Translations under genes and position numbers: made by a program
DNA from: Bdellovibrionales bacterium
GTDB lineage: Bacteria > Bdellovibrionota > Bdellovibrionia > Bdellovibrionales > DASUEL01
Direction of reading: 5' to 3'
DNA length: 64,000 bases
Assembly: GCA_050250255.1 (NCBI GenBank)
Contig: JBFWOZ010000007.1
Location: 9,200-73,199 of the forward strand
Notes under the pieces: generated by a model
Seen by the model: only the letters and a program-made list of their open reading frames with translations
What the model was told of the DNA's origin: nothing
Databases searched by the model: none
Part shown: piece after piece, positions 971 through 60,464 of the stretch
How positions within the stretch are numbered: the stretch's first letter is position 1
How the letters are laid out: every line of letters starts with the position of its first letter

Positions 971-2305
971 GTGCATCAAGATATGGTAGATTTTGGCAAA
1001 AACTGGAAAAGTGACAATATGTCCCCTCGTCGTCACAGGAGGCTAGGCCCTTCTTTGAGCCAGTCGAAGTTTTTTCTATGGTCTTTCGTACTTACAGTTT
1101 TTATTGGGAGCGTCGGCTTCTTTTTTTACCACGCAACCTCAGTAAACCTCAATCATCGTAAAATCTCAAAATTGATCGGACCAGCGATCGCCGCTAACAA
1201 CTGGCCAAAGACCGCAGTCTATTCTAAAGGAAACATCAAAACTTCCCTCAGTATTAGCTACACCACGGACGCTGTGAGCCAAGAGGCCATCCAAAAACTT
1301 TTTAATGCTTACAAGCCAGATTACGGCGCCCTCGTGGCAATGGATGCTGAAACTGGCCGCATTCTCTCCATGGTGAGTTACACACGTGACAATGAGCCCG
1401 TAGGTAATTTGTCTCTCAGAGCCACGTTTCCTGCGGCATCTGTTTTTAAATTGATCACCGCGACTGCCGCCGTAGAAAGCGCGCAACTGACCCCAGAGAC
1501 AATGATTGCGTTTAGCGGAGGTAGTCACACTCTTTACCGTCGTAACGTTTACGATAAAAAGATCAACCGTTGGACAAGAAATATTTCGCTGAAGCAAGCT
1601 TTCGCACTTTCCGTAAATACAGTTTTTGCTAAACTCGGTCTTGAGCATATGGCACCAAGCACTCTTGCAGAATACGCTCATCGTTTTAAATTTAACCAAG
1701 ACATCGATTCGGACATTCCGGTACAGCCAAGTGTAGCGAAAATTCCAGATGAAGCGACTTGGGAAATTGCAGAAGTGGCTTCAGGTTTCAACAAAGTGAA
1801 TACCTTAAGTCCTCTTCATGGAGCGATGCTTGCAGCCGCCGTTGTAAACGATGGCGTGATGATGACTCCTTACCTTGTAGATTCCATGCAAAATGAAGAT
1901 GGTGAAACGGTTTACTCGGGAGTGCCCAAAATAGATTCAGTGATTATGGAACCGAAAACTGCGGAGAAAATCAAAATCCTAATGGCAGAGACGGTAAAAT
2001 CTGGAACTTCTCGTAAAATGTTTCGTGATCTTGTTCGTTCTCCGGCTTATGACCGCGTGTCTTTCGGTGGGAAATCAGGTTCGATGACAGGTCTAGATCC
2101 ACAAGGGAAAACAGATTGGTTTGTGGGTTATGCTCAAAGTGGTGATAGAAAAATCGCTGTTTCTGTAATGACCATTCATAAGAAGAATTGGACCGTGCGC
2201 TCGGCTTATCTTGTGCGCAGATACATCCAAAGTTATTTAGAAAATAACGGAGCGATACAGGCAGAAAGCAAGACCTCTCGCCGTTCTAAAAGAGATCGTA
2301 TCTAA
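971..2305 (+). CDS. penicillin-binding protein, transpeptidase domain with single N-terminal membrane anchor
   Basis: 444-aa ORF with TM helix FFLWSFVLTVFIGSVGFFFY. The motifs SVFK (SxxK), SVN (SxN) and KSGS (K[ST]G) occur in the canonical order. The start is GTG 971; ATG 983 or 1019 are alternatives. Confidence 0.75.
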   Translation: MHQDMVDFGKNWKSDNMSPRRHRRLGPSLSQSKFFLWSFVLTVFIGSVGFFFYHATSVNLNHRKISKLIGPAIAANNWPKTAVYSKGNIKTSLSISYTTDAVSQEAIQKLFNAYKPDYGALVAMDAETGRILSMVSYTRDNEPVGNLSLRATFPAASVFKLITATAAVESAQLTPETMIAFSGGSHTLYRRNVYDKKINRWTRNISLKQAFALSVNTVFAKLGLEHMAPSTLAEYAHRFKFNQDIDSDIPVQPSVAKIPDEATWEIAEVASGFNKVNTLSPLHGAMLAAAVVNDGVMMTPYLVDSMQNEDGETVYSGVPKIDSVIMEPKTAEKIKILMAETVKSGTSRKMFRDLVRSPAYDRVSFGGKSGSMTGLDPQGKTDWFVGYAQSGDRKIAVSVMTIHKKNWTVRSAYLVRRYIQSYLENNGAIQAESKTSRRSKRDRI

Positions 2306-3437
2306 CCTCTCGCGGTTCTTGCGTAGCATCTGTAATAACATCAAAATACAGTCGACCTATTTCACGTCCATCAGAAGTTTCCACTCGCACTTGCCAAGCG
2401 CCGGGCTGATAGTTTGATTTAAGAGCGTAGCCACGATATCCGGCATCACGGCCACCGGAAATCGCAAGCGGGATGATATCGGTATTAGCCCAACCATATT
2501 TAGGATCTTTAAAGAGCCAACGAATTTGAACTTTGTCACTGAAATGCGAAGGCGAAAACAAAGAAACGAAGAAGTAAATTTTGTCTTCGGGACGTGCCGA
2601 AAAAGTCTGTGCCCCCTTTTGCCAAAATCTCCACCAATCTCGATAGTAACCCATCTTGAATTTTCCATCACTTTTTTCTGCAGAATAATAAACACCGACG
2701 TCAGTGAGCGAAAGTGGAACTGGTGGAATCATTTGAAATATGTAGAGAAAAAGAAAGATCGCAAGTACCGCAACCGAAGGCATCGCAACTTCTTTGCGAA
2801 TAAAATTCTCATCAAATTTTCTGCGGCGTAGATGCCACACAAAAAGAGAGATGATCGAGATGCTTGCGAGAAGTGACAAAGTAAAAGGAAGAAGCCCGAT
2901 ATGCCTTAAAAGAATTGGCATGAGATAAGAGAAAAAACAAGTGAGGCAAAGAGCATAGAGCGCGAACCGCATCATCAACCCGTACTTTTGAAATCTTGGA
3001 AGTTCATTCAAAATAAGTAATGCGGCAATGAGACCCACAAAAACAAAAGATGTAAAGAGCGATGAGCTTTTAAGAAAAAACAAAGTGTAAGTGCTCAGAA
3101 GGCTTCCGAAAAGAAAGTGTACGGCCATTTCACGATAGCCGAGGAGTTTTTGAACCCAGGGTGGCATTTGTAAACGATTAAACAGTTCATAGGATTCGGC
3201 CACAAGAAGAATTCCGATGATGATTAAATAAACGGTTTGCTGAATCAGTGAAAAAAGCGAATCAATACGATCAAGAGTGATCACATCAAAAATGAATCCG
3301 CCAATAAAGAAAAGGGCGGGCACTTTGTGCTCATGTTTTTGATAGAAGCTCATCGCTTGTTGATGTTTTTCTTTTACAAAGTCCACCATAGAATCCCTCA
3401 GATGAATGAATAAGAAGTGCAGAAAAGATGCCACCAA
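2286..3437 (-). CDS. polytopic membrane protein with C-terminal soluble beta-rich domain (DUF2914-like)
   Basis: 383-aa ORF with about 8 hydrophobic helices. The C-terminal ~120 aa (YFFVSLFSP...WQVRVETSDGREIGRLYFDV) resembles the DUF2914 domain from memory. Its 3' end overlaps the convergent PBP gene by 20 nt. Confidence 0.55.
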   Translation of the reverse strand: MVASFLHFLFIHLRDSMVDFVKEKHQQAMSFYQKHEHKVPALFFIGGFIFDVITLDRIDSLFSLIQQTVYLIIIGILLVAESYELFNRLQMPPWVQKLLGYREMAVHFLFGSLLSTYTLFFLKSSSLFTSFVFVGLIAALLILNELPRFQKYGLMMRFALYALCLTCFFSYLMPILLRHIGLLPFTLSLLASISIISLFVWHLRRRKFDENFIRKEVAMPSVAVLAIFLFLYIFQMIPPVPLSLTDVGVYYSAEKSDGKFKMGYYRDWWRFWQKGAQTFSARPEDKIYFFVSLFSPSHFSDKVQIRWLFKDPKYGWANTDIIPLAISGGRDAGYRGYALKSNYQPGAWQVRVETSDGREIGRLYFDVITDATQEPREVRYDLF

Positions 3438-3600
3438 GCATGGTCCTTTAAGGGGCTATCGAAGGCTGTCTTGGTAAGGAGTGACATTCAAGGGCACACA
3501 CTTTTTTATTCCTAAACACTAGAGCTTACATCAAATTCAATAGATTGAAGTTGGGCTGGAATGCTTATCGCATTGCTTAGCTCTATTGGAAGAGGTGTTT

Positions 3601-4053
3601 ATGAAATGTTTTATGACTTTAATGGCTTTTGTTGTTTCGGGCTCAGCTCTTGCTAGTGAAGATCAAAGTCGATTTGAACAAGCTAAGGTTGGTGGATCTA
3701 AGTTTGTCACACCGCTGTCTTCTCTTATCTGTGAAAGAAAACATGAGAGCGGTGGTGTCCTGATAGAGCTTAAAAAAATAGCAGGTCAAACCTTTCATTA
3801 TAAAAAAATTGTTCGTAGCGGAGTGAGGGTGTACGGGGTCTATTTTCCAAAGGTTACTCTTATAGAAGATGTTGTGGAGTGCGAGCAGAATAAGGAAGAT
3901 AGCGCGAAGGTTGCATGTCGCTCTCCAGATCGGTGGACCTCTGTCAGAACAAATGATCCAGAAACGAATGCACAGCAGATTCATGTCAGTACGGGCGATA
4001 GACAAGAAATACGTATTGTAACATTTGAACGACGAGAGTGCTCTGTAAAGTAA
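3601..4053 (+). CDS. small secreted four-cysteine protein (paralog A)
   Basis: ATG 3601 is preceded by GGAAGAGG. Signal peptide MKCFMTLMAFVVSGSALA. It has four Cys in the same pattern as the next ORF. No family recognised. Confidence 0.6.
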   Translation: MKCFMTLMAFVVSGSALASEDQSRFEQAKVGGSKFVTPLSSLICERKHESGGVLIELKKIAGQTFHYKKIVRSGVRVYGVYFPKVTLIEDVVECEQNKEDSAKVACRSPDRWTSVRTNDPETNAQQIHVSTGDRQEIRIVTFERRECSVK

Positions 4054-4074
4054 AATGGTTACGAAGCGGAATTA

Positions 4075-4539
4075 ATGAAAAGAGAGAAAATGCGTTTTGT
4101 TTATTTGCTTAGTTTATTTTTAGCTTCTGCGATCGGTGTCTCAGCTTCTGAGGCTCAGCAAGATACAAGTGTCTCTGCGGCAGCATTTTCACAGTTTTTG
4201 TGTGAAGAAAAGGAGGGTGAGGCGACGATTCTGAGAATTGAGCTTCGAAAAAAGTCAGAAAACGCCTACGTATTAAACCATCTTTTGCTTGTTGATCGTG
4301 ATGAAAAAGGAAATCTTTTGGAGCAACCCCTGGTGACCGACACCTCTCATCTTGTTTTTTGCCAACAAGATGGTCTAGATCCAATGAAGGTTCTTTGTAG
4401 CGGTACACAAGCTTACTTAAATTCTAATAATACATATACGAACCAAGATATTATTCACTTTGCAATTTCTCCCAAAGACCCTCGCATCTCTTATCGAGTT
4501 CTTCGGGCAGATTGCAAAATTCAAATGGACCTTAAGTAA
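4075..4539 (+). CDS. small secreted four-cysteine protein (paralog B)
   Basis: Signal peptide MRFVYLLSLFLASAIGVSA (alternative start ATG 4090). It aligns with 3601..4053 at LCEEK/LICERK, IELRKK/IELKK, FCQQ/ECEQ, KVLC/KVAC and a C-terminal DC/EC. Confidence 0.6.
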   Translation: MKREKMRFVYLLSLFLASAIGVSASEAQQDTSVSAAAFSQFLCEEKEGEATILRIELRKKSENAYVLNHLLLVDRDEKGNLLEQPLVTDTSHLVFCQQDGLDPMKVLCSGTQAYLNSNNTYTNQDIIHFAISPKDPRISYRVLRADCKIQMDLK

Positions 4540-4553
4540 AGGGAGATGGAGTT

Positions 4554-6185
4554 ATGATTTTTAAATTCACAGTCCCGATGATTGCGGTGATAACCCTAGT
4601 AGGCTGCCAAGCGCAGTTTAAAGCGGCGAATGGCCCCGGACAAACTTCCACGGTTGCTCCAGCGGCACCACCGCCACTTCCGACTCCTTATTCACAAAAT
4701 CAGCAGCAACCTGCGGCAGCGCAAAATTCTGCGACTCCAGCGGCATCCAATAATCATTCACAAGAGCAACAACAAAACCCAATGCCTTCTAGAAACCAAA
4801 ACAATGAAAGACCTGTCCTGCACGAGGACCCCTATGAAATTAGCACAGACATGTCTCACTGCGAGCCCGATTGCGGGCCTTCGCGACCCCTTCCACAACC
4901 AACAAATAATAAGCCTGTTGAAAATAAGAAGCCGCCTGTGGGAACGCCGATGATTATCAGCAAACCAACAAAGCCGCCGGTGGTTTTAATTCCGATGCCC
5001 CCTAAAACTCAACCAACGACACCAGCGCCTACACCGACGCCCGCTCCGGTGCCTACGCCGGCACCCACTCAAACTCAAAAGCCACAACCTAAAGGAACAT
5101 TGATCAACATAGGTCAGCCACGGCAAGTCACCCTAATTCCTATGCCAAAAAAACTTGAGAGCGATGTTGGTTGTAACAAAAAAACAATTCAGCAACCTCA
5201 GCTAAAGTTAAAGAAGCTCGATCTCCTTTTTGTTCTCGATACATCAAACTCACTTTTTAAAGAGCGAGGCGCTGTGGCCGAAGGAATTGATCAATTCATT
5301 TCTAAGCTCCCGGCGGATATTGATTTTCGTATTGGAGTGATGGCGGGTCATGGAAGCAAAAGCACGCTTACAGGCCAACTCTATAAAAAAGCGAGTAGTT
5401 CGGAGCCGTTAGTGCTTAACTCCTCGGAGCTTTCTTCGCAGCAGTTACGACTCACACTCAAAGATAAACTCACGCAAATTCCCGGGGATCGCCTTTCTGA
5501 TGGTGGCGAGATGAGCATGTATTCTCTGAATAAAGCTTTTGATACTATGAATGTTTCAAAAATGAAATCGGCTGGTTTTTTAAGAGAAGACGCGGCGCTT
5601 GCGGTGATTTTTTTTGCAGATGAAAACGATATTTGTGCTCAATATCCTTCGGGAGTGAAACCTAAAATCGATAAACAAGGACAAGAAAATCTGATTAAAA
5701 AATCAGGTGTGTGCACGGGCATCACGGCTCTTGGTATCGTAAAGAAGATTCAGTCTGTAAAAGGAAAACAGCCAGTAGCTCTTAACGGAATTCTCTATAC
5801 GGATGACCGTACAATCAAAAACCATGATCGTAGCGATGCCTGGTCAGAAGAGAACGAAGTGGGTTACGGATACACGGACATGATTCGTTTAAGTAACGGG
5901 ATTGTCGTAGACCTCGCAAAAGGAAACTATGCCGAGGCACTTTCAAAAATTGGCGAAAAGGTAAATATGAAGCTTTCGACTTCGCTTGAGATTCCTTTGG
6001 CCGCGAGATCAAAAGACTACAGCATCCGTGTGGAAAGCGTGACAATGAATGGTCAAGAATTGCCACGGGTCGGTTACGAAAAAGAAAACGGTTACAATCA
6101 CGCGCAAGAATTAGAAAGCGTTCACTTGCTCTCGGGTAGTCCGGGAGCTATGGTTGAAATCGAATATTGCGAGCAAGCAAATTAA
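4554..6185 (+). CDS. lipoprotein with Pro/Gln-rich linker and von Willebrand factor A (vWA) domain
   Basis: Lipobox LVGC at residues 15-18. A ~180-aa low-complexity P/Q/T region follows (TPAPTPTPAPVPTPAPTQTQKPQP). Next comes LDLLFVLDTSNS, a DxSxS MIDAS-type vWA start, with a further ~330 aa. Confidence 0.65.
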   Translation: MIFKFTVPMIAVITLVGCQAQFKAANGPGQTSTVAPAAPPPLPTPYSQNQQQPAAAQNSATPAASNNHSQEQQQNPMPSRNQNNERPVLHEDPYEISTDMSHCEPDCGPSRPLPQPTNNKPVENKKPPVGTPMIISKPTKPPVVLIPMPPKTQPTTPAPTPTPAPVPTPAPTQTQKPQPKGTLINIGQPRQVTLIPMPKKLESDVGCNKKTIQQPQLKLKKLDLLFVLDTSNSLFKERGAVAEGIDQFISKLPADIDFRIGVMAGHGSKSTLTGQLYKKASSSEPLVLNSSELSSQQLRLTLKDKLTQIPGDRLSDGGEMSMYSLNKAFDTMNVSKMKSAGFLREDAALAVIFFADENDICAQYPSGVKPKIDKQGQENLIKKSGVCTGITALGIVKKIQSVKGKQPVALNGILYTDDRTIKNHDRSDAWSEENEVGYGYTDMIRLSNGIVVDLAKGNYAEALSKIGEKVNMKLSTSLEIPLAARSKDYSIRVESVTMNGQELPRVGYEKENGYNHAQELESVHLLSGSPGAMVEIEYCEQAN

Positions 6186-6374
6186 TCACCATTTTGATTT
6201 AAAAAGCTTCGCCTGCTTACGGTAAACGTAGCGGGCGTGCGCGATATAGCTAGCGCACATTAAGAGCGTCAGCGAGGATGCGAAAAGTAAACCCGATTTT
6301 TGTTGAGTCGTAATGGCATAAAGCGCAAACCCTAGTAGCATCCAAGGCTTCATTTCGTACATCGACTTTTCCAA
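6186..6374 (-). CDS. small two-helix membrane protein (hypothetical)
   Basis: 62-aa ORF with two hydrophobic segments. There is no homology evidence and the gene may not be real. Confidence 0.3.
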   Translation of the reverse strand: MEKSMYEMKPWMLLGFALYAITTQQKSGLLFASSLTLLMCASYIAHARYVYRKQAKLFKSKW

Positions 6375-6556
6375 GAATTCCCCCTGTTCATTTTTTTGAT
6401 AACAACTGGTCTCTAGGCACCTGTTCTACGAAAAGGTTGCGTTTGACGACCCCATACCCTTCATAATTCAAAGTGTATTCCAAGGAATGCGTCTCAAAAC
6501 GAGACACGGGGCTCCTTTGGTTGAGAAGCGTCCTGCTTTTCGCTATTTTGATAGAT

Positions 6557-7171
6557 ATGAAAAGTCTTTTTTTAAGTTTTACTCTTTTGTTTTGTTCTTT
6601 CCAGCTTGAAGCCGCAAAGCCGAGTGTTCCCGTAAAGGTTGTTGTACTCGGTGATTCCCTCACGGAAGGATATGGATTAGATAAAGACCAAGCCTTCCCC
6701 GCACTTGTTGAAAAGAAGTTTCTCGACCGTGGGAAAAAAGTGGAAGTGATCAATGCCGGCGTGAGTGGTTCTACTTCAGCTGGTGGGCTTTCTCGCGTCG
6801 CTTGGGTTATGAAATCTAAACCTCAATTTGTTGTAGTGGCACTTGGCTCTAATGATGGCTTGAGAGGTTTAGATGTTAGCGCCTGTAAAAAAAATATTAA
6901 AGAAATTATTCAACGGGTTCGAGCTGACGGTGCCACTCCTCTTCTTATCGGTATGAAAGTGCCGCCCAACTATGGAGTAGAATACACGAAAAAATTTGAG
7001 AATATTTTTTTGGAACTCTCAGCGGAGGAAAAAGTACCATTGCTTCCATTTTTGCTTTTAGGGGTTGCAGGTCAGCCAAAATATAATCTTCCCGATGCCA
7101 TTCATCCCAACAAAGAAGGTCATAAAATTTTAGCCGAAACGGTCTATCAATTTTTAGAGAAAAATATATGA
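6557..7171 (+). CDS. tesA: SGNH/GDSL lipase-thioesterase, TesA-like, secreted
   Basis: It has VVVLGDSLTEGYG (block I), GSNDGL (block III) and DAIHPNKEGH (block V). Signal peptide starts at MKSLFLSFTLLFCSF (ATG 6557; the ORF track starts at 6473). Confidence 0.75.
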   Translation: MKSLFLSFTLLFCSFQLEAAKPSVPVKVVVLGDSLTEGYGLDKDQAFPALVEKKFLDRGKKVEVINAGVSGSTSAGGLSRVAWVMKSKPQFVVVALGSNDGLRGLDVSACKKNIKEIIQRVRADGATPLLIGMKVPPNYGVEYTKKFENIFLELSAEEKVPLLPFLLLGVAGQPKYNLPDAIHPNKEGHKILAETVYQFLEKNI

Positions 7172-7839
7172 ACTCGGATCTTCTCCTTCAAGTTCGCTCT
7201 GTGTCTAAATCCTTTGTTCAAGGTACAAATCGCATTGAAGTTTTAAAAAATTTAGAACTTTCTGTGCGCAAAGGAGAAACCGTTGCCATTCTTGGTGAGT
7301 CAGGAAGCGGAAAGTCCACGCTTTTGTCACTCCTGGCGGGCTTAGACAAACCAGATAAGGGAAATATTCTCATCGACAGTTTTGATATTAGTCAAATGAG
7401 CGAAGCGGAACTAACCAATGTGAGGGGACAGCTTTTAGGTATGGTGTTTCAGCAATACCATCTTATCCCAAGCCTCAATGCTTTAGAAAACATTAGCCTC
7501 CCTCTTGATATTCAAAAACAGGTGGATGCGGAAGTCCGTTCAAAAAATGCCTTGGCGCAGGTGGGTCTTTCTCATCGAGCGTCGCATCTTCCGCATCAGA
7601 TGAGTGGGGGAGAATGTCAAAGAGTGGCGATTGCTCGGGCGATTGTACCACGCCCTCTTCTTTTGTTGGCCGATGAGCCCTCAGGAAATTTAGATGTGAA
7701 CACCGGAACCCATGTTCTTGATATGATGTTTGACATCATTAAAACAAATCACATGACGGCACTTTTTGTCACCCATAGTGAAGAAGTCGCCAGACGATGT
7801 CAGCGCCGCGTACATTTGAAAAATGGCCAATTAGTATGA
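7168..7839 (+). CDS. ABC transporter ATP-binding protein (YbbA/LolD-like)
   Basis: Walker A GESGSGKST, signature MSGGECQRVAIARA, Walker B LLLADEPSGNLD. ATGA overlap with the tesA-like stop. Confidence 0.85.
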   Translation: MNSDLLLQVRSVSKSFVQGTNRIEVLKNLELSVRKGETVAILGESGSGKSTLLSLLAGLDKPDKGNILIDSFDISQMSEAELTNVRGQLLGMVFQQYHLIPSLNALENISLPLDIQKQVDAEVRSKNALAQVGLSHRASHLPHQMSGGECQRVAIARAIVPRPLLLLADEPSGNLDVNTGTHVLDMMFDIIKTNHMTALFVTHSEEVARRCQRRVHLKNGQLV

Positions 7840-10412
7840 AATTGATTTTAAGGTTGGCCTGGAGAGAAATCAGGTCACAACCCAAATTCACTCTTTTTTT
7901 CGTCCTCAACATCGCATTTGGTATGTTGGGATTTTTTTCGCTCCTGTTATTAAAACAATCCATGGAAGAGGCGATTGAAACTCAATCACGGGCGATGTTA
8001 TCTGCAGACATCAGTGTTTCTGGCCGACGTGCTATCACCGAGGAAGAAGAAAAAAAGTTTGTCACGGTGATTGAAAAATTAGATCAAGGGTATGAACCGC
8101 AAAGGCGTACCGATATCGTTGAAATGTTTTCGATGTTAGCCAGTGACTCAGAGAAACAAAAAAAATCTTTACTCGTACAAGTCAAAAGTATTCAAGAGGG
8201 TTTTCCGCTTTTTGGAAGTGTACAATTAGAAAAATTTGGATTGTTGAGTTCGGGAAAAAGACCTGCACATCTTGGAACCTACCCACCCATGTGGGTGTAT
8301 CCAGAGATTTTGCCTCAGCTGGGTTTAAAGTTGAATGAACTTGTGCGTTTGGGAGAGCAAACATTTCAGGTGTCGGATCTGGTGCAGAAGGATATCGGTA
8401 CGGCATTTCGTCTTCTCTCGCTAGCTCCAAAAGTTTATATTCAAAGTCAGGATTTAGAGCGCACTGGTCTTATTCGATTTGGTACCACAAGTACTAGTAC
8501 TCTCTTTTACATTTTAAAATCTGCACCCGCGGAGTTAGTGGAAAACGAATTGCAAAAAGTTTTGCTTGATCCAGGGCTCGATGTGCGAAGTCACAAGACG
8601 GCGAGTGAGCAGATGAATCGTCTCATCAGCTATTTAAGCGATTATTTAGCGCTTGCGGCCGTTGTGGGTCTTTGCCTCTCGTCGCTCGGAACAGGTTTTC
8701 TTTTCCGTAATTATATAAATAAACGCTTCAAGGATATCGGAATTTTTATTTCTTTAGGGCTATCGCGCTCAAAAAGTGCTTTGGTTTTTGTCGCCGTTGC
8801 TTTTTTGTTGAGTTTAGCAGCGCTACTGCTGAGTACGATATTTTCCATCACAGTGAGCCCGTTTTTACTTAATCTTGTAAAGGCCTTTACGCCTTTTGAT
8901 CTTCATTTTAGTTTTGCTTTTGAGAATGTGTTTTTTTTCTTTCTTTTTTGTTTCGTGACTGTGGCTCTCTCCTGCGCTCCGGTTATTCTTAAAATACAGG
9001 ATTTAAAACCTTCGGGTCTTTTTCGTGAGCATGAATATGCAACGATGTCTCACAGCCTTAAGCCATGGTTGGTATTTCCTATTGCTTTGGCCGTTTTATG
9101 GGCCGTGGCCATTTGGCAAACACAATCTCCTCGTGTGGGAAGCATTTTTGTTGCAAGTTTCTTAGGCTCCTTTTTGCTGATTTATTTTTTCGCTCGATGT
9201 TTATTTTATCTTATCGCACGCCTCCCTCAGCCACATAATATTCAATGGAAAATCGCTTTCCGAAATATTGTTCGCATGGGGCCGGGAGTGCTCGAAAGTT
9301 TTTTATGTTTAAGCTTAGGATGTCTTCTCATGAATCTTATTCCGCAACTGCAAACCAGTATCCGCTCTGAAATTACGCAGCCGGAAAGCTTAAGCTTACC
9401 GAGTTTTTTTCTTTTTGATATTCAGCCAGAGCAAGTTGAGCCTCTCCAACAATTAGCAAAAAAGCATCAGTTTCAACTAGAGGCACTCTCACCACTCGTG
9501 AGAGCGAGGCTTGCGGCCATCAACAATCAAACTTTTCAAAAATCAGAAGAGAACGAAACGGGGCAGTCTCGCGAAGAGCAGCGAAACAATAACTTTAGAA
9601 ATCGTGGTTACAATCTCACGTATCGTGAATCCCTCAACTCGAGCGAAGTGATCATTGCGGGGCGTCCGTTCAGTACCCAAAAAGAGAAGGAGGCGGAGAT
9701 CTCTGTGGAGAAAGATTTCGCAAGCAGACTGAATCTTAAGCTTGGGGATAAGTTGAGTTTTGATATTCAGGGTGTTCCTATTGAAGGAAAAATCGTAAAC
9801 CTGAGACGGGTAAAGTGGAACAGTTTTCAACCCAATTTCTTCGTTGTTTTTCAATCTGGTGTGTTGGAAGAAGCGCCGAAGACATTTCTTGCGTCGATTC
9901 CGAGTCTCCCTCGCGTGCAGAGAGGTGTGCTTCAATCAGAACTGGTCTCGCAGTTCTCTAACGTTTCTATCATTGATGTAGAGAGAGCTATTCAACAAAT
10001 TTTGGAACTCACAGAGCAGATGTCGTGGGCGCTCTTTTTTATGGCAGGTCTTTGTATTCTTTCGGGGCTTGTCGTGCTTTATTCGGTGGCCAATTTGCAG
10101 GCTTACAACCGACGCTGGGACTACACGATGTTAAAAATCTTAGGTAGTAAGTTGAGTGATCTTCGCAAGAGCGTGCTGGTGGAGTATGGAGGCATGGCTT
10201 TCCTTGCGGCCCTCATTGGTGCAAGTATTAGTCTGCTTATGAGCTACGTACTGTCGATTTATATTTTTGATGGATCTTTTGAATGGAATACCTGGTCTTT
10301 TGTCCTGTCGATAGCCGCAGTCATTGTACTGAGCCTGTTGGTGGTGTGGATTGCTACCTATGTTTATTTGAAGGAAAAGCCAGGTCGCTATTTATTCAAC
10401 CGAGATCTTTGA
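7836..10412 (+). CDS. ABC transporter permease, FtsX-family double-domain (YbbP-like)
   Basis: About 860 aa with two blocks of 4-5 TM helices separated by a large soluble domain. Start taken at ATG 7836 (MKLILRLAWREIR), which forms an ATGA overlap with the ATPase stop. The ORF track starts at 7797. Confidence 0.75.
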   Translation: MKLILRLAWREIRSQPKFTLFFVLNIAFGMLGFFSLLLLKQSMEEAIETQSRAMLSADISVSGRRAITEEEEKKFVTVIEKLDQGYEPQRRTDIVEMFSMLASDSEKQKKSLLVQVKSIQEGFPLFGSVQLEKFGLLSSGKRPAHLGTYPPMWVYPEILPQLGLKLNELVRLGEQTFQVSDLVQKDIGTAFRLLSLAPKVYIQSQDLERTGLIRFGTTSTSTLFYILKSAPAELVENELQKVLLDPGLDVRSHKTASEQMNRLISYLSDYLALAAVVGLCLSSLGTGFLFRNYINKRFKDIGIFISLGLSRSKSALVFVAVAFLLSLAALLLSTIFSITVSPFLLNLVKAFTPFDLHFSFAFENVFFFFLFCFVTVALSCAPVILKIQDLKPSGLFREHEYATMSHSLKPWLVFPIALAVLWAVAIWQTQSPRVGSIFVASFLGSFLLIYFFARCLFYLIARLPQPHNIQWKIAFRNIVRMGPGVLESFLCLSLGCLLMNLIPQLQTSIRSEITQPESLSLPSFFLFDIQPEQVEPLQQLAKKHQFQLEALSPLVRARLAAINNQTFQKSEENETGQSREEQRNNNFRNRGYNLTYRESLNSSEVIIAGRPFSTQKEKEAEISVEKDFASRLNLKLGDKLSFDIQGVPIEGKIVNLRRVKWNSFQPNFFVVFQSGVLEEAPKTFLASIPSLPRVQRGVLQSELVSQFSNVSIIDVERAIQQILELTEQMSWALFFMAGLCILSGLVVLYSVANLQAYNRRWDYTMLKILGSKLSDLRKSVLVEYGGMAFLAALIGASISLLMSYVLSIYIFDGSFEWNTWSFVLSIAAVIVLSLLVVWIATYVYLKEKPGRYLFNRDL

Positions 10413-10418
10413 GTATGC

Positions 10419-10598
10419 AGGGCGTGTCCATACTTAGATTTTGGCTGCAAAAGTCATCTTCCTTCGCAGAAAATTGCTGCTCGTCTGCGATTTTCTGCGA
10501 CTTGGCTACGGCCAAGCCTCAAAAATCTTGTCTGCGCCTCAATTTTCTACTCGAAATCTGAACTTTTTCGCTTCAAAATCTAAGTATGGACACGCCCT
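10419..10598. repeat. 180-bp palindromic intergenic element with 24-bp perfect terminal inverted repeats
   Basis: agggcgtgtccatacttagatttt (10419-10442) is the exact reverse complement of 10575-10598. There is an internal 11-bp perfect hairpin (10464-10474 / 10490-10500). A central hairpin cttggc-tacg-gccaag (10501-10516) sits exactly at the element midpoint. Confidence 0.85.
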
Positions 10599-10601
10599 AG
10601 G

Positions 10602-11219
10602 ATGGAAATTACCTATTTTGATAACTACGAAGCTTTAAGTGCATCGGCGAATGAATGGTGTCGTGAAAAAATTCAGACCCACAAAGCGAAGAGTCTTTAC
10701 GTTCCCGCTGGCCAAACACCTATTGGCCTTTATCATCTTTGGGAAGAGACAAAACCAAATTTTTTAAAGTCCATTCAGCTCATTCAGATTGATGAAGTGA
10801 TTCAAGGGAACAAAAAAGATCTCTTCAAAAGTTTCTTTGAACAAGAGCTTCCTTCTTTTAAAAAACAAATTGAGTTTATAAAAGACAAACCACATTATGC
10901 GGATCTAGGCGTTCTTGGTTTGGGTACTAATGGACATGTGGCTTTTCATGAGCCGAGTGTGGACCCGGCCTTTTCTTTTGGGTATGTGGACCTCTCTGAA
11001 TCTACCAAAAAACATTTGGGAATTGAGGGCACTGCCGAGGCTGTTTCCTACGGGGTGGGGGCCTTTCTCAGGACTAAGGCACTTCTCCTTCTCATTAGCG
11101 GTAAAAACAAGAAACTTATTTTTGATCGTTTAATAGCAGGGGAAGACAATATCCCGGCTGTTTGGCTGACCTCCCATGAACGCTTGGATGTCTATGTAGA
11201 CCAGAGTTCCATCACTTAA
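10602..11219 (+). CDS. glucosamine-6-phosphate deaminase / 6-phosphogluconolactonase family protein (short form)
   Basis: 205 aa. GLGTNGHVAFHEP matches the NagB/Pgl family signature (G-x-G-x-[DN]-G-H-x-A-[FS]-x-x-P). Confidence 0.7.
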   Translation: MEITYFDNYEALSASANEWCREKIQTHKAKSLYVPAGQTPIGLYHLWEETKPNFLKSIQLIQIDEVIQGNKKDLFKSFFEQELPSFKKQIEFIKDKPHYADLGVLGLGTNGHVAFHEPSVDPAFSFGYVDLSESTKKHLGIEGTAEAVSYGVGAFLRTKALLLLISGKNKKLIFDRLIAGEDNIPAVWLTSHERLDVYVDQSSIT

Positions 11220-11475
11220 ATATTGGAATTCTCAAGCAAAAAGGGCCCTTTCTCCTTCCTTAAAGGATCCCCCATAGAGGAAGTGTGTTTTCATTAGGCT
11301 TTCGTGAAGAAATGGTGCCGATTGAAAAAAAAGTTTCCTGACTTAGGGGGTTATGGTACATCATTTTCAAGTAAACAGTCCGCGCGGGTCCGGTAGATGG
11401 CTACTCAGTTCCTTAAGCGGCTACGTAGGGTCGAGAGTGATGCACTCTATGATCTAGGATATGAGGAGGCTACAC

Positions 11476-11829
11476 ATGGGTAAAAAACTATACATCGGAA
11501 ATCTTCCGTTCTCGGTGAATGATGCAAGCTTACAGGAGCATTTTTCACAGGTTGGACAAGTTGAATCTGCAAAGGTCATCACTGACCGTGATTCTGGTCG
11601 AAGCAAAGGTTTTGGATTTGTAGAAATGGGTTCTGATTCTGAAGCAGCTGATGCTGTTACAAAATTCAACGGAACAGAATTCCAAGGTCGAACAATGACA
11701 GTTGCGGAAGCACGTCCACAAGCTCCACGTGAAGGCGGCGGCGGCGGATTCCGTGGCGGTGGCGGCGGACGCGGCGGTGGCGGCGGACGTGGCGGCGGTG
11801 GCGGCGGCGGTTGGAACAGAGACCGATAG
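11476..11829 (+). CDS. RRM-type RNA-binding protein with Gly/Arg-rich tail
   Basis: ATG 11476 is preceded by GAGGAGG. RNP2 is LYIGNL and RNP1 is KGFGFVEM. The C-terminus is GGGGGFRGGGGGRGGGGGRGGGGGGGW. Confidence 0.85.
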   Translation: MGKKLYIGNLPFSVNDASLQEHFSQVGQVESAKVITDRDSGRSKGFGFVEMGSDSEAADAVTKFNGTEFQGRTMTVAEARPQAPREGGGGGFRGGGGGRGGGGGRGGGGGGGWNRDR

Positions 11830-11863
11830 TCCACAGTTTAAAAATAAAGCTAATAAGAGAAAA

Positions 11864-11888
11864 GGGTATCGCAAGGTGCCCTTTTTTT
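11864..11888. terminator. bidirectional rho-independent terminator
   Basis: gggtatc-gcaa-ggtgccc is a 7-bp stem (two G-U pairs) with a GNRA loop, followed by T7 on the plus strand. On the minus strand it is followed by TTTTCTCTT. It lies between convergent genes. Confidence 0.65.
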
Positions 11889-13239
11889 ATTGATTGAATT
11901 GGGAAATGGCTTGAGTGGCTTTGAAAAGATTCAGTCGACCGTTACTCATGCTCTTGTCTTTTAAGGCCTCAATGGCATCTACGTTTTGTAAAAGAATTTT
12001 TTTAAGAGACAAGCTCGCTTCTTTAGGAGAGCTTTTGTAATAGTCGTTAAAAGTTCGGTTTGCAGCGCTGTGAAGAAGCGCAACGGCACCCGCCACGTAA
12101 GGAGTAGCCATAGAAGTTCCGGTCATCTTCATAATGCTCTGACCGGGCACTGTCGAGAGGACATCCGTTCCTGGAGCGCCAAGATCGATGCTCTTTATTC
12201 CATAACCTGAAGAGGTATTGAGACGATCGAGTTCGTCGGTATTTGTAACCGCGATTAAGCTTTCGCTTTCACATCCTGTTGGAACATCTCCTCTTGCATC
12301 CACATCGATATTGCGATTGATGGTGGCAGCGACAGAGAGAATGCCATAGTTCCCCATCAAATTATAAATATCATTCCATGGTTTATATTCATTGGACTTA
12401 CAATCTGCAAAGTCGACACCGAAGCTCGAGTTTGTGGCGACAACATTGGCGCCTTTCATACCTCTGGATTCTAGCCAGATTTTTTTCTGAACAAGTACGT
12501 AGTTATAGGCCTTTAAAACGGTAGAGGTTTTTCCTGAAGCTCCAACAACCGACATAATTTTTACTTGATGATTCACGCCGCACACTTGAATCTGATTGTT
12601 TCCTCGTGCTCCTACAATTCCTGCAACATGGGTTGCGTGTGCATCACGAGGGAGTTTACCGCTGTCATCAAACGCGTTCCAACCATTTACGTCGTCGATG
12701 TATCCATTACCATCATCGTCTTTACCATTGGCTGCAATTTCTGTTTTGTTCACCCAAATATTTTCTCGAAGGTCTTCATGGAGAATATCAATTCCACCAT
12801 CTACAACGGCAACGACGATATCGCTGCCCGAGACATCCTGACCACCCTTTGAATAGTTCCAAGCCTCTGTCGCTTTGATGTCGGCATTGGGGGTTACAGT
12901 ATTCTTCAATGGCCATTGCAATTTAAAATCTGGATCGTTCGGCATATCTCGGAGCGACACCTCGTAATCGGGCACCGCGTACTCTACGCTTTTAATTTCT
13001 CGAAGTTGTCTGAGTGTTTCACCGATAGAGACATTATTTTTTTTGTAGCCCAAATAAATACCAAGTGCGGGTACAAGCTCTTCCGTGTGAGTCACGGCGT
13101 TGAGAAGATTGGTCTCTTTTATTGCAATAGAATTTTTCAACCGAAAAATCACTTGCTCAGAAGAGAATTCAGCCGCTTTAGAATTTTGAGTGAATAAAAA
13201 AAGACAGAGAGACAGTGGCCAGCAAAGAGTCGTTTTCAC
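11887..13239 (-). CDS. secreted subtilisin-like serine protease (peptidase S8)
   Basis: Signal peptide is present. Catalytic blocks are VAVVDGGID (Asp), HATHVAGIVGA (His) and GTSMATPYVAGAVALL (Ser). Confidence 0.85.
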   Translation of the reverse strand: MKTTLCWPLSLCLFLFTQNSKAAEFSSEQVIFRLKNSIAIKETNLLNAVTHTEELVPALGIYLGYKKNNVSIGETLRQLREIKSVEYAVPDYEVSLRDMPNDPDFKLQWPLKNTVTPNADIKATEAWNYSKGGQDVSGSDIVVAVVDGGIDILHEDLRENIWVNKTEIAANGKDDDGNGYIDDVNGWNAFDDSGKLPRDAHATHVAGIVGARGNNQIQVCGVNHQVKIMSVVGASGKTSTVLKAYNYVLVQKKIWLESRGMKGANVVATNSSFGVDFADCKSNEYKPWNDIYNLMGNYGILSVAATINRNIDVDARGDVPTGCESESLIAVTNTDELDRLNTSSGYGIKSIDLGAPGTDVLSTVPGQSIMKMTGTSMATPYVAGAVALLHSAANRTFNDYYKSSPKEASLSLKKILLQNVDAIEALKDKSMSNGRLNLFKATQAISQFNQ

Positions 13240-13373
13240 AAATTCCCCCTAGGAAAAGACTCTTTCAGTGTAAGTCGAAGGGGAGGGATTTCCCTAAGGT
13301 AGCGAGGGCTGGCTCTTCTGTTTCCAGACAAGAGTCAGGAGACTTTATTGCTCCATCAAGCCCTTTGTACGGC

Positions 13374-14252
13374 CTAGAACATGTCATCCACGGCACATGG
13401 ATTTTCTATCTCTCGAAGGAGGAAGTTCTTTGTGTCGAGAGGTTTCCAACCGCGCCCCAAAAGCTCATTGTACTTAGACTGAGGGACAGATGGGACTTGA
13501 GTCGAATCAAAGAAATCTGTGTTCGTGGTGTAGCCATTAAGAGGATCCATGACATCGGCAGGGTTTGTGGGCCAAGGTCTCCACATCAAAACCATAGAAA
13601 TGTGCATGCGAGGTCCTTGGTAGTATTGTAGCTTCATAGGTAAGCGAGTCGTGCGATCAAAATGTACGGCCTGTGTGGCGACTTGGAAGCGCGTAGGATG
13701 ATCGTTTTCGTTTTCAATCAAAGTTTGAAACGGAACGTTGCTGTCAGGTTGGAGGCTAAGAGTTGCTCCATCATCTGAGAGGATAGCGAATTGATAATCA
13801 CCGATGTGCGTATCGGAAGCATTTAACATCAACGTACTTTCGAGTTGTAAACCAAAGTATTCGTAGAGCGTGTCCCCGGTATTTGTTTTAAGGGTGACGC
13901 CCTCTTGTGTGGTAAACCCTAGGTCAAAGGCGCGCGTCGGAACAAAGAGTCGACTTAAAAATAAGGTGACTCGATCTACAAGAACTCCATGGTTGATGTA
14001 GTCTGATGAACGATTGTAGCGAGGCATATCGTCGGTGAGGTAATAGAATTTTCCCGTTAAACCATTTTGACGGTAGACGAGTTCATCGTTACTAAAGGGA
14101 TCACAAACAACCGGCTCTACAGGCGGATTGATCTCGAGCTTCATCCCTTCGCTACTTTGTCCAGAGCCATTATCTTGGCCGGGCTGGCAGGCCAACTGCG
14201 AGACAGAAATAATAAGACCGTAAAGTATTATGCTTATTCTTTTTATCGCCAT
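13374..14252 (-). CDS. lipoprotein with PA14-like domain
   Basis: Lipobox QLAC. GLTGKFYYL ... GDYQFAILSDDGATLSL resembles the PA14 pattern (GLxGxYY ... Y.F...DDG..L). Confidence 0.55.
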   Translation of the reverse strand: MAIKRISIILYGLIISVSQLACQPGQDNGSGQSSEGMKLEINPPVEPVVCDPFSNDELVYRQNGLTGKFYYLTDDMPRYNRSSDYINHGVLVDRVTLFLSRLFVPTRAFDLGFTTQEGVTLKTNTGDTLYEYFGLQLESTLMLNASDTHIGDYQFAILSDDGATLSLQPDSNVPFQTLIENENDHPTRFQVATQAVHFDRTTRLPMKLQYYQGPRMHISMVLMWRPWPTNPADVMDPLNGYTTNTDFFDSTQVPSVPQSKYNELLGRGWKPLDTKNFLLREIENPCAVDDMF

Positions 14253-14459
14253 ACGTTCCTCATCAAAGTCGAATCTTGTACCTAGATATAAGAATACCGG
14301 GGAACTGGACCTTTGTGTTGTAGCAGCTTGAGACTGACTAAAAGTTTAATAATAAATTATGAAAATTTGATGAAACTTCGTACACACATTTGTGAATGCT
14401 CTTGTTTATCGGGGGCTTACGGAAAAACAAAGGGAAATATAAAATCTCAATTTGAGAGA

Positions 14460-14615
14460 GGTTGGAGGTTTGGGGTTTATCGTTTGAGGTTTGTCGTACC
14501 GTTAGAGGTTTACCGTTTGAGTTTTCGGTTGAGTACCGCCTGAGATTTAGACCTCCAACCTCCAACCTTTAAACGGTACCTCAAACCCTAAACCTCAAAC
14601 GACAAACCTCCAACC
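14460..14615. repeat. mosaic GT-rich / CA-rich imperfect inverted repeat (long hairpin) just 3' of the kynB operon
   Basis: Perfect complementary blocks occur in antiparallel order: 14460-14472 with 14603-14615 (13 bp), 14480-14492 with 14590-14602 (13 bp), and 14496-14503 with 14572-14579 (8 bp). The arms are built from GGTTKGAGG-like units. Confidence 0.75.
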
Positions 14616-14621
14616 GTAAAC

Positions 14622-15251
14622 CTATGTCGTCACCAACACCGCTCTAACAGGAGAAGCATCCGCGCTAGCAATCTTCAACGGCATCGCAATCAACGTATAG
14701 TTACCAGGCTGTACATGAGCAAGAACAAGTCCTTCGAGATTCACAATTTGATTTTTCGAAATCGCTTGATGGCTTTCAAGAATTTTGTCAGCAAAAGGGT
14801 CAATGGAAGGAGTGTCGATTCCTATCAGGAGCACGTTCTTTTCGGACAAAAATTCAATCAGCTCGGGTGAAAGACTATTGAAATCTTCATTGAAATGATT
14901 GGGATCGGGAAAGGAATTTGTTTTGAGGAGTATTCTCTGCGAGGTGATGGATTCTTTTAGATCTTGAACTTGGATTCGCTTTCCTCGAGGGATATTCACT
15001 TCTAGCACCTGACAGTGACCGTAATAAGGTTCGAGCTCCATACGATCAATGCTCGGACCACTTCGTAGGTAGTGAGAGCGGGCGTCGGCATGAGCACCTA
15101 AATGTACGGTTGTATGAATAGAACTGAGTCCAATGTTCGCGCCTTGCTCCATATCTAACGAAATGTTGCGAGTAAAAGGCGTATCGCCTGGCCAAACCGC
15201 AATCTTTTCTGAAATGAGTGGCGAAATATCAATGAATTGGTTCTTCTTCAT
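14622..15251 (-). CDS. kynB: kynurenine formamidase (cyclase family)
   Basis: 209 aa. It has IDISPLISEKIAVWPGDTPF, HLGAHADA (the HxGTHxDxP-type metal motif) and C-terminal ADASPVRAV. It matches Bacillus/Pseudomonas KynB along its whole length, from memory. Confidence 0.8.
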   Translation of the reverse strand: MKKNQFIDISPLISEKIAVWPGDTPFTRNISLDMEQGANIGLSSIHTTVHLGAHADARSHYLRSGPSIDRMELEPYYGHCQVLEVNIPRGKRIQVQDLKESITSQRILLKTNSFPDPNHFNEDFNSLSPELIEFLSEKNVLLIGIDTPSIDPFADKILESHQAISKNQIVNLEGLVLAHVQPGNYTLIAMPLKIASADASPVRAVLVTT

Positions 15252-26089: not shown

Positions 26090-27733
26090 ATGAAAGAATT
26101 TTCGAGCCAAACTCGTAGTGAAAACCTCCAGAAACTTTCTGAAGAAAATTTTGATTTGTTGATTATTGGCGGTGGGATCACGGGTACGGGTGCCGCACGA
26201 GATGCTGCGAGCCGAGGCTTAAAGGTTGCGCTCATCGACGGCCAAGATTTTGCCTCGGGCGCGAGCTCACGATCGAGCAAACTCATTCATGGTGGTATTC
26301 GTTATCTCGAAAACTATGAATTTCATTTAGTTTTTGAAGCACTTAATGAGCGACAACGTTTATTTCACATCGCCCCTCATCTCGTTCATCCTCTGAAGTT
26401 TGTTCTCCCGCTCTATGAGGGGGACCGCGTCACTCCATTTCTCATGGGAATTGGAATGTGGCTTTATGATGCGCTCGCACTGTTTGATGTGCCAATGCTC
26501 CATTACTTTATGGGCCCTCGAAGTACGAAACGTGAGATTCCAAGTCTGCAAACAGATGGTTTAAAGGGTTCTTATGTCTATTCTGATGCGTACATGGATG
26601 ACGATCGACTCGTGATCGAAACCTTGCGCTCGGCTCATCAGTGGGGAGCCACAGCGGTGAACTACACCAAAGCGATCGGTGTAGAAATGCAAAATGGAAA
26701 AGTGGTGGCCGTTGATTGTCGCGATGAAAAAACAAAAAACACTTTTAAGATCAGAGCCAAACATTTTATTTCGACTGTAGGTCCGTGGACCGATATTTTA
26801 GGTCAGGATTTACTCAAAGATTGGAAAAAGCTTCTTCGACCAACAAAGGGAATTCATCTCACGTTTGAACAACATCGCTTTCCTTTGAAAGATGCCGTGG
26901 TTATGTCCACTCGAAATGATAAGCGCATTGTTTTTGGAATTCCTCGCCACGATATGGTGATTGTTGGAACGACAGACACCGCCTACCAAGAGCATCCAGA
27001 AAAAGTTTCGGCGACACGAGAAGATGTCGAATACCTTCTTAAAATTGTGAATAGTTATTTCCCTGGTGCAAAGCTCACCACAAAAGACATCGTAGCAAGT
27101 TACGCAGGCGTTCGTCCGCTCATTGATGACGGCGCCGAGACCGAGAGTAAAACCAGTCGCGAACATCTCATCAAAAGTGATCCACGCAACATCACATTTG
27201 TGGCGGGCGGGAAATACACAACCTACCGCTACATGTCGCAGCAGACGATCGATGCAGCACTTGAAAACTTTGATCACGAAACTCGAAGTCGTTTGCAAAA
27301 GAGTCAAACCGAGTTGCCGCTCAATCCTGCCGCGAGCACGGACAATATCTGGAGAAGTTTGCGAGAAGTGGACGGGCTTGCTCAAGAATATGGACTCAAA
27401 CCTTCGAGCGTAGAATGGCTCATTCGTCGACACGGTTATGAAGCACAAAATCTTTTAGCAATAAAAACCGAGCAAGACCCTGATCTCGCCATTTGGCAAA
27501 TGGAGGTGATTCAAGCGGTACGATATACAATGTGTCTGCACCTATTGGATTTTTATGTTCGAAGAACTCCACTGATGTTGTCGCGAAGAGATCACGGCAT
27601 GGGACTCATCGATGCAATCGCTCAATATTTCAGCCAAGAGCTCGGCTGGTCTGAAAATCAAAAAAGAGCTGAAGTTGAATCGGTAAAACAGTTCATTCTC
27701 ACCGAATACCGCTGGCGCACCACGAAGTTCTAA
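26090..27733 (+). CDS. glpD: FAD-dependent glycerol-3-phosphate dehydrogenase
   Basis: DLLIIGGGITGTGAARDAASRGLKVALIDGQDFASGASSRSSKLIHGGIRYLE is the characteristic GlpD N-terminus. 547 aa. Confidence 0.85.
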   Translation: MKEFSSQTRSENLQKLSEENFDLLIIGGGITGTGAARDAASRGLKVALIDGQDFASGASSRSSKLIHGGIRYLENYEFHLVFEALNERQRLFHIAPHLVHPLKFVLPLYEGDRVTPFLMGIGMWLYDALALFDVPMLHYFMGPRSTKREIPSLQTDGLKGSYVYSDAYMDDDRLVIETLRSAHQWGATAVNYTKAIGVEMQNGKVVAVDCRDEKTKNTFKIRAKHFISTVGPWTDILGQDLLKDWKKLLRPTKGIHLTFEQHRFPLKDAVVMSTRNDKRIVFGIPRHDMVIVGTTDTAYQEHPEKVSATREDVEYLLKIVNSYFPGAKLTTKDIVASYAGVRPLIDDGAETESKTSREHLIKSDPRNITFVAGGKYTTYRYMSQQTIDAALENFDHETRSRLQKSQTELPLNPAASTDNIWRSLREVDGLAQEYGLKPSSVEWLIRRHGYEAQNLLAIKTEQDPDLAIWQMEVIQAVRYTMCLHLLDFYVRRTPLMLSRRDHGMGLIDAIAQYFSQELGWSENQKRAEVESVKQFILTEYRWRTTKF

Positions 27734-27789
27734 AAGGTACGGACACACTTTTGGGACTTGGTGCGTCCCAAAAGTGTGTCCGTACCTTT
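27733..27789. terminator. perfect 25-bp stem / 7-nt loop hairpin exactly filling the gap between convergent genes
   Basis: aaaggtacggacacacttttgggac (27733-27757) is the exact reverse complement of 27765-27789. Each arm overlaps the adjacent stop codon by 1-2 nt. Confidence 0.7.
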
Positions 27790-59313: not shown

Positions 59314-59342
59314 AATATAGAACTCATCTCACGAATAGGCAA
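59314..59342 (-). promoter_or_regulatory. candidate sigma70-type promoter of the wecE-like/fabI unit (leaderless or near-leaderless)
   Basis: On the minus strand it reads TTGCCT (comp 59337-59342), a 17-nt spacer, then TATATT (comp 59314-59319). The -10 box ends 8 nt before ATG 59305. There is no SD. Confidence 0.5.
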
Positions 59343-59583
59343 GGCCCGACGATTTCTAATGGTTTCAATATCGAGGCGCGAGGAGGAGGCATAGCGGTCC
59401 TATGCCGACGACGAGTAATGAAGAGATTGAAACCATTAGAAATCGCCCAAAGGGTTCTTCGCTCTTTCCTAGAACTTTTCGTTACTTCTCCTCAAAATAG
59501 CACCACTATTTTTCGTCGTCGCGCCTCAATTTCTAGAAAAGAGCGAAGAATCGGGTCTTGCCTATTCGTGAGATGAGTTCTAT
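59317..59583. repeat. 267-bp mirror-symmetric nested-palindrome element
   Basis: The 27-bp perfect termini are 59317-59343 and 59557-59583. Inner pair 1 is 59350-59369 / 59426-59445 (20/20). Inner pair 2 is 59455-59474 / 59531-59550 (19/20). Both 56-nt loops are mutually reverse-complementary at 40/56 positions. The centre cccaaaggg (59446-59454) lies at the exact midpoint. Confidence 0.9.
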
Positions 59584-60436: not shown

Positions 60437-60464
60437 TTGACATCGATCAATAATATGTTAAACT
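60437..60464 (+). promoter_or_regulatory. candidate promoter of vapBC (leaderless)
   Basis: TTGACA (60437-60442), 16-nt spacer, TAAACT (60459-60464), 7 nt before the vapB ATG. Confidence 0.35.

Follow-up and report, generated by a model that had tools for sequence, protein, structure and literature searches.

At the junction between a ybbP-like permease gene and a nagB-like gene, the Bdellovibrionales DNA analysed here (a stretch of 64,000 nucleotides, hereafter the window) carries a 180-bp palindromic element with perfect inverted ends and a degenerate interior. The element is missing from the same junction in three syntenic relatives and has no detectable relative in the data searched. Given the short spacers and the conserved stop and start of the flanking genes in those relatives, it is a lineage-specific insertion. 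With slightly better than even confidence, the element is interpreted as a MITE-like non-autonomous transposable element, and modelling of its RNA suggests that it could alter the expression of the gene that follows.

Anatomy of the element

The two arms of the element are complementary at 25 of 25 nucleotides, and the inverted termini that a first-pass annotation of this DNA had given as 24 bp are thus real and one base longer. The boundary of the repeat is sharp, with the next outward bases, C10418 and A10599, left unpaired. The element also occupies the intergenic gap as that annotation had described, beginning at the seventh nucleotide after the TGA and ending three nucleotides (AGG) before the ATG (Table 1). 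When up to three mismatches are allowed, the 25-mer occurs in the window at the two arm sites and nowhere else (0.00 expected from 100 dinucleotide shuffles), and perfect 20-mer inverted repeats within 400 nt are found at 21 window positions as against none in 20 shuffles. The arms themselves are not self-complementary.

Both internal hairpins reported earlier are present. The stem formed by 10464-10474 and 10490-10500 is perfect over 11 bp and reaches 14 bp if one mismatch is allowed, and the CTTGGC-TACG-GCCAAG hairpin at 10501-10516 is centred at 10508.5, the midpoint of the whole element. The two halves had been called loosely complementary; the interior is indeed degenerate, yet its 130 nt are self-complementary beyond chance (z = 5.9; 0/1000 shuffles), at roughly 62-72%. 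Aligned with its own reverse complement, the complete element shows 72% identity over 186 columns. At this overall mismatch rate of ~28%, the chance of 25 straight matches is about 0.72^25 = 3e-4, and the ends must therefore be under a different constraint, or be of a different age or history, than the interior. Two reading frames stay open for ~52-54 codons. Queries with either frame, which could also have picked up spurious ORFs lying over other copies, returned no homologue from collections of 1.8-5.8 billion proteins.

The Logan assembly of SRR27751816 (contig L001, equivalent to window 5542-14489) is identical to the window, with 0 mismatches, and the sequence is therefore independent of any one assembler.

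Table 1. Coordinates of the element, its parts and the flanking genes in the window.
Feature	Position	Strand	Remarks
YbbP-like FtsX-type ABC permease, 871 aa	7797..10412	+	TGA at 10410-10412; stop position conserved in relatives
Original spacer, left remnant GTATGC	10413..10418	+	
Palindromic element, 180 bp	10419..10598	.	Inserted; absent from three syntenic relatives
Left terminal inverted repeat, AGGGCGTGTCCATACTTAGATTTTG	10419..10443	+	With preceding C10418 reads CAGGGCG, an ISAs1-like terminus
Internal hairpin	10464..10500	+	14-bp stem (11 bp perfect), 9-nt loop
Central hairpin CTTGGC-UACG-GCCAAG, on symmetry axis	10501..10516	+	UNCG-type tetraloop on + strand only
Degenerate right interior half	10517..10573	+	Imperfect mirror of 10444-10500; repeated AAAATCT, ATTTTCT and TCTGCG motifs
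Right terminal inverted repeat, perfect complement of left arm	10574..10598	-	Outward with A10599 reads TAGGGCG
Original spacer, right remnant AGG	10599..10601	+	Possible 3-bp direct repeat of 10419-10421
nagB/pgl-family protein (PF01182), 205 aa	10602..11219	+	Start MEITYF conserved in relatives

Genomic neighbourhood

The genes around the element are arranged in the order GDSL/TesA-like esterase, YbbA-like ABC ATPase, YbbP-like permease, nagB/pgl-like protein, RRM-type RNA-binding protein and S8 peptidase, the last of these on the strand opposite to the rest of the cluster. The gene for the RNA-binding protein (122 aa, a single RRM, window 11461-11829) lies 240 nt beyond the nagB-like gene, and the protein matches NF058537, 'RNA-binding regulator', at 106.6 bits, above the cutoff; its position is conserved in the relatives, where it is a 117-aa ORF. 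Further upstream, between a DUF2914 gene and the esterase gene, window 3586-6185 holds three ORFs (155, 154 and 543 aa) with no Pfam match. Since a related contig of 200 kb has just a 75-aa ORF at this place, the interval is a lineage-specific block of ~2.6 kb, and an inverted repeat (3040-3079 / 3336-3375; 40 nt, 73%) lies near it.

Empty sites in syntenic relatives

Evidence on the history of the element comes from the orthologous ybbP/nagB junction, where the first-pass annotation had proposed to look for empty sites. The esterase-ybbA-ybbP-nagB-like order is kept in three relatives, as far as each contig reaches. In all three, the permease ends in ...YLFNRDL* and the next gene starts with MEITYF, the N-terminus MEITYF.NY of the nagB-like protein being kept in the relatives. 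All three sites are empty, and the refuting outcome named by that annotation, an element conserved at this locus in every relative, is thereby contradicted. The spacer at this junction measures 189 nt in the window, against 14 nt in L002 (72% aa identity; TGA-GTAAACTCAATCAG-ATG), 36 nt between the called genes in GCA_041443025.1 (JGI 3300059473, a 200-kb contig; 66% aa) and 39 nt in L087 (64% aa). No inverted repeat is present at the junction in any of them.

Excision of 10419-10598 in silico leaves the 9-nt spacer GTATGCAGG, and this reconstructed empty site shares with L002 a GTA at its start and a CAG at its end, and has one G more. The simplest history suggested by these comparisons would be one insertion of ~180 bp in the lineage of the window. 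The event is undated, because the relatives are distant (64-72% aa), and in the more remote nagB-like homologues (<=52% identity) the synteny is lost.

Search for further copies and a parent element

The search for further copies covered several collections. No second copy was found in the 64-kb window, either by blastn or by a mismatch search (<=3 mismatches), and an exact 20-mer gave 0 matches in 185,579 GTDB species-representative genomes, a collection in which the nearest nagB-like protein is 50-52% identical. An 18-mer returned one chance match from JGI metagenomes, located in a coding region of a high-GC organism and lacking the partner arm, while a 17-mer and a gapped palindromic pattern returned three loci from viral contigs, at chance level and with no extended similarity. 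Plasmids and phages held nothing similar to the element by blastn, and no copy was detected by blastn and nhmmer in 1.29 Mb of Bdellovibrionota loci fetched via the nagB-like protein.

The assembly of the sample itself speaks to copy number as well. A near-identical second copy in a sample would normally break a k=31 graph contig, and the k=31 Logan contig L001 crosses the element unbroken; judging from assembler behaviour, this speaks against such a copy in SRR27751816. The Logan contigs extend beyond the window by only 46 nt.

A permissive Rfam scan (cmscan of 9800-11300, E up to 10) placed nothing in the element, and a 6S-like rod RNA, considered as a candidate, was ruled out by this negative scan. 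No terminator-like site, and on neither strand a promoter-like site, was seen inside the element in a consensus scan, nor does it contain an IHF consensus site.

Terminal sequences and the search for a target-site duplication

With the adjacent base included, the ends of the element read CAGGGCGTGTCC on the left and TAGGGCGTGTCC on the right. ISAs1-family insertion sequences end in CAGGG. All seven members examined start with CAGGG, mostly CAGGGC, and have TIRs of 14-26 bp: E. coli H-rpt / ISEc1 (left CAGGGAAAGAT, right CAGGGCAAGAT), ISKpn31 (left end only, CAGGGCAAGATCG), ISAs12 (left CAGGGCGAGATCG, right CAGGGTGAGAGCG), ISAzs5 (both ends CAGGGCTCCGAA), ISPa60 (left CAGGGCAATCGC, right CAAGGCAATCGC), ISAeme2 (left CAGGGCGGGATCG, right CAGGGCGGGAGC) and a Methylocystis element (left CAGGGCGATCGG, right CAGGGGAATCGG). 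The element resembles this family in its tips, CAGGGCG on the left and TAGGGCG on the right, and in a TIR length that falls within the family range. However, the similarity ends after 6-7 nt of the tip. Moreover, perfect 10-bp duplications flank four of five ISAs1-family reference elements, whereas the element has no 10-bp duplication and its flanks, TTTGAGTATG and GGATGGAAAT, agree at 2/10 positions. Neither the window, with the element itself, nor the related loci yielded an ISAs1 transposase. Taken together, the termini suggest an ISAs1-type transposase as a candidate mobiliser, to be treated as a lead.

Two target-duplication candidates can be drawn from the flanks, namely AGG (10419-21 / 10599-601), which overlaps the repeat, and GTATG/GGATG (4/5). 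Neither is convincing; the first-pass annotation had seen no target-site duplication. Such duplications are reported to decay with age (PMC10969869).

A proposed MITE-like element in an operon spacer

Prokaryotic MITEs are described as elements shorter than 500 bp, with TIRs of 4-30 bp, a transcript that forms a stable stem-loop and direct repeats that fade with age, and copy numbers down to one per genome have been reported (PMC10969869). The element matches this description as a non-coding sequence of 180 bp with 25-bp TIRs, a stable predicted stem-loop in its transcript and presence or absence at orthologous sites. It departs from it in base composition, with a GC content of 45% against 44% for the window, and is hence not AT-rich relative to its host. 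The first-pass annotation had compared the element with MITEs of the ERIC/Correia type. The anatomy (perfect ends, a degenerate interior, no ORF, a stable hairpin) and the empty sites bear out the MITE part of that comparison; the data searched yielded no second copy or parent, and the element shows neither a sequence relation to ERIC or Correia elements nor a TA duplication.

In the favoured interpretation, a TIR-bounded palindrome of 180 bp entered a tesA-like / ybbA / ybbP / nagB-like operon at a spacer of 9-40 nt, presumably moved by a transposase that recognises its ends. Perfect ends around a degenerate interior are the pattern that selection for transposase recognition would be expected to produce, since only the ends must stay intact for a copy to move.

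Predicted RNA structure and access to the start codon

The spacers of 14-39 nt in the relatives make co-transcription of ybbP and the nagB-like gene likely, and the element would then be transcribed together with the operon. The resulting RNA is predicted to form a rod or a branched hairpin. The sense RNA of 10410-10610 has a minimum free energy of -85.2 kcal/mol, compared with -45.6 ± 3.8 for shuffles (z = -10.5), and in the predicted fold an unbroken helix of 26 bp (25 Watson-Crick pairs and one G-U) closes three inner hairpins. The base of this helix would lie 6 nt past the ybbP stop and 1-3 nt ahead of the nagB-like AUG, which pairs with 10414-10416 at the helix base in the minimum-energy structure. 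The antisense strand folds better, into one rod at -95.0 kcal/mol (z = -12.1), with four G-U pairs that correspond to A-C mismatches on the sense strand, pairs that are too few to interpret.

It had been suggested that the start region of the nagB-like gene would be buried in a stem upon transcription, and the model agrees, as the predicted helix occludes -28 to -4 and the AUG pairs at its base. Opening the region -20..+12 around the AUG is predicted to cost 29.3 kcal/mol with the element and 13.6 kcal/mol when the element is deleted in silico; the native junctions of L002 and L087 require 9.7 and 8.3 kcal/mol. The predicted cost of opening the start site is thus raised by about 16-20 kcal/mol.

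The same annotation held that the element leaves the nagB-like gene no room for a Shine-Dalgarno (SD) sequence of its own. The absence is real, as no SD-like motif lies at a usable distance from the start in the window. The attribution to the element is weak, because no such motif is found in the spacers of L002 (GTAAACTCAATCAG) or L087 (39 nt) either, and the element therefore did not remove an SD. In the modelled structure, what it adds is the occlusion of the -28 to -4 region and not the loss of an SD; it appears to have buried an SD-less start, which probably relied on coupling to ybbP. With the ribosome docking region buried, translation of the nagB-like gene might be lowered, or might become reliant on ybbP ribosomes unzipping the left arm.

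Another outcome, which is improbable, is that folding of the hairpin takes the inserted sequence out of the path between the two genes in the mRNA and so restores the stop-start spacing of ~9 nt seen in the reconstructed empty site, preserving translational coupling. A terminating ribosome could then re-initiate across the base of the 180-nt hairpin in a shunt-like bypass; it could also melt the left arm and so unmask the nagB-like start. If this were true, the spacers of coupled genes would be just the places where palindromic elements are tolerated, and selection at the locus would keep the stem perfect even without other copies.

The predicted RNA helix of 25-26 bp would be long enough for RNase III and is a candidate substrate, whose cleavage would split the upstream and downstream cistrons. 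RNase III cleaves the TIR helices of Correia elements in Neisseria (PMC10969869, PMC2649163). With Correia TIRs as the precedent, processing of the element is a prediction from structure.

Weighing the rival explanations

The features just described could also be accounted for by a single-copy structured RNA or DNA element that selection keeps at this locus, whatever its origin, a reading that is to be regarded as unlikely. An intercistronic hairpin of this kind might stabilise the upstream ybbAP message, serve as an RNase III processing site and set the ybbP : nagB-like expression ratio, and its function, in place of recent transposition, would keep the stem perfect. Such a role would fit ends that are perfect though no near-identical copy seems present in the sample (L001 being unbroken), a helix base located precisely at the stop/start junction, a C(UACG)G tetraloop placed exactly on the axis of the sense strand and a large predicted effect on start-site accessibility. 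However, the element is missing from 3/3 syntenic relatives and so cannot be called a conserved regulatory feature; folding favours the antisense over the sense strand (-95.0 vs -85.2 kcal/mol), no Rfam family matches and no homologues were found for a covariation test. Moreover, a 180-nt palindrome without a local source sequence is hard to explain unless it was inserted.

Insertion itself could have come about by another route. REPIN-type elements insert without target duplication, and a REPIN-like doublet, that is, two inverted REP-type sequences mobilised by a RAYT (a Y1 HUH transposase), would share with the element its two inverted 25-mers around a partly palindromic spacer, its extragenic location and the lack of a clear target duplication; a Y1_Tnp (PF01797) gene is even present in the related MAG GCA_041443025.1. 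Yet an internal REP-type hairpin is missing from the 25-mer arms, REPINs normally number tens to hundreds of copies while the 64 kb and the other collections searched yielded no further one, and no Y1_Tnp-flanking repeat with the sequence of the element exists in the window, all of which renders this origin distinctly improbable. It is highly unlikely that the 25-bp repeats are the crossover sites of a recombinase around an invertible 130-bp segment that controls the downstream gene: promoter-like sites are absent from the segment on both strands, no recombinase is found among the genes scanned (971-10412 and 10602-15251, plus a few elsewhere in the window), a single orientation is seen in both assemblies, and inversion would change little because the interior is itself palindromic. 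This is so despite the perfect inverted repeats on either side of a short intergenic stretch just ahead of a gene, and despite the ease with which recombination that homogenises the repeats would explain their perfection. As MDA or assembler errors can generate palindromes, and only one sample carries the sequence, a chimeric fold-back produced by assembly or amplification has also to be weighed, and is scarcely credible. The NCBI MAG and Logan assemblies are identical; fold-backs are perfect inverted copies of their neighbours, whereas the element is imperfect inside and matches nothing nearby; and the flanking ORFs are intact, ending and starting exactly as in the relatives.

Comparison with known systems

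The MITE-like interpretation places the element beside several described families, each of which it resembles in part. Correia elements (CREE/NEMIS) of Neisseria occur in hundreds of copies, and here one copy was found. They are intergenic MITEs of ~100-160 bp with TIRs of roughly 26 bp, are co-transcribed and are cleaved by RNase III (PMC2649163, PMC10969869). The element lies at a gene start as they do and is close to them in size and in the length of its TIRs, but it lacks a TA duplication, an IHF consensus site and, at its ends, promoter-like hexamers. No sequence similarity links it to Correia or ERIC elements, as judged by the Rfam scan and the plasmid and phage searches.

ERIC elements are multi-copy, with 30-700 per genome. 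The ERIC/IRU sequences of Enterobacteriaceae and Vibrionaceae are imperfect palindromes of ~127 bp or more that lie in transcribed operon spacers, form rod-like RNA and affect mRNA stability (PMC10969869). The imperfect palindrome, the operon spacer and the rod-like predicted fold are shared with the element; the host phylum differs, and the ends of ERIC are not perfect 25-mers. With REPINs, the element has in common two inverted units of ~25 nt around a spacer, a long imperfect hairpin, an extragenic position and the lack of a clear target duplication, but its arms carry neither a REP hairpin nor a conserved 5' tetranucleotide, and neither abundance nor, in the window, a RAYT was seen. In QMITE2 of Coxiella burnetii, TIRs of 23-29 bp surround a core of 113-145 bp, and the transcript forms one very stable stem-loop (PMC10969869). 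The element matches it in TIR length, core length and the very stable stem-loop of its transcript, and differs from it in that QMITE2 has direct repeats of 7-9 bp and many copies; the two have no sequence relation.

Other palindromes and repeats in the window and its relatives

A second long palindrome (59317-59583; 267 bp) fills the divergent gap between a DegT-aminotransferase and a GT2-glycosyltransferase gene. Its 33-nt ends match at 32/33 positions and enclose two nested 23-nt hairpins, and its termini, A-TA-GAACTC...GAGTTC-TA-T, would be consistent with duplication of a TA target. The relative L099 lacks this palindrome: its gap is 134 nt without an inverted repeat, and beyond the homologous left flank GTGAATAT come 66 nt of spacer that is unrelated and not palindromic. 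With this palindrome, too, missing from a relative, there is support for a genome that takes up elements of this sort. Both palindromes contain a gapped 18-nt motif, GTC-GCGCCTCAA-TTTCTA, at the same distance from the right end. Homology between the two was considered and set aside, as one shared motif (1/300 shuffles before correction for 8 tests) is insufficient.

Palindromic sequence occurs elsewhere in the window. One of ~175 bp, rich in GGTTT/AAACC, is situated upstream of a cyclase gene (14454-14628); the Logan contig L001 stops within this palindrome, at 14489, a hint that it is difficult to assemble or present more than once in the sample. At 27733-27789 lies a perfect hairpin of 25 bp with a loop of 7 nt, whose first base is also the final base of the stop codon of a 547-aa ORF (26090-27733); no T-run comes after it. 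Within its arm is GTGTGTCCGTACCTTT, a sequence similar to the TIR core GCGTGTCCATACTTAG but pointing the other way with respect to the ends. A relation to the element through the common GTGTCCRTACYTT was rejected, being at chance level (local alignment p about 0.17) and with the motif in opposite orientation.

Between the GT2 and M24 peptidase genes, at 60440-61057, the window carries a MazE/PIN toxin-antitoxin pair, and the same place in GCA_041443025.1 is taken by a gene for a 182-aa Y1_Tnp protein (PF01797; IS200-like or RAYT), such that this interval looks like a hotspot for small mobile modules. Finally, among partial relatives the nagB-like gene has its closest match (77% aa) on L088, an 800-bp contig (ENA ERZ505514). 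At positions 1-300 of L088, the 5' third of that gene is replaced by CAGTAGTCAGTAGT-type repeat arrays in both orientations; the coverage of this contig is 1.3x, and it may be a chimera or another repeat insertion.

Implications

Comparing spacer lengths across syntenic relatives serves as a quick test for insertion, even without the genome itself. Long palindromes with perfect ends in the intergenic spacers of MAGs are usually mobile-element insertions, and in this respect the broader point made by the element is a modest one. Nothing relevant on MITE or REP sequences in Bdellovibrio came up in the literature searched. If it is a MITE, the element would represent an undescribed family in Bdellovibrionota, of a kind that is ordinary and well known, and it could be the first hint of non-autonomous derivatives of the ISAs1 type. 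For the organism that carries it, the predicted structure indicates that the element has probably rewired the expression of the last gene in a conserved four-gene cluster.
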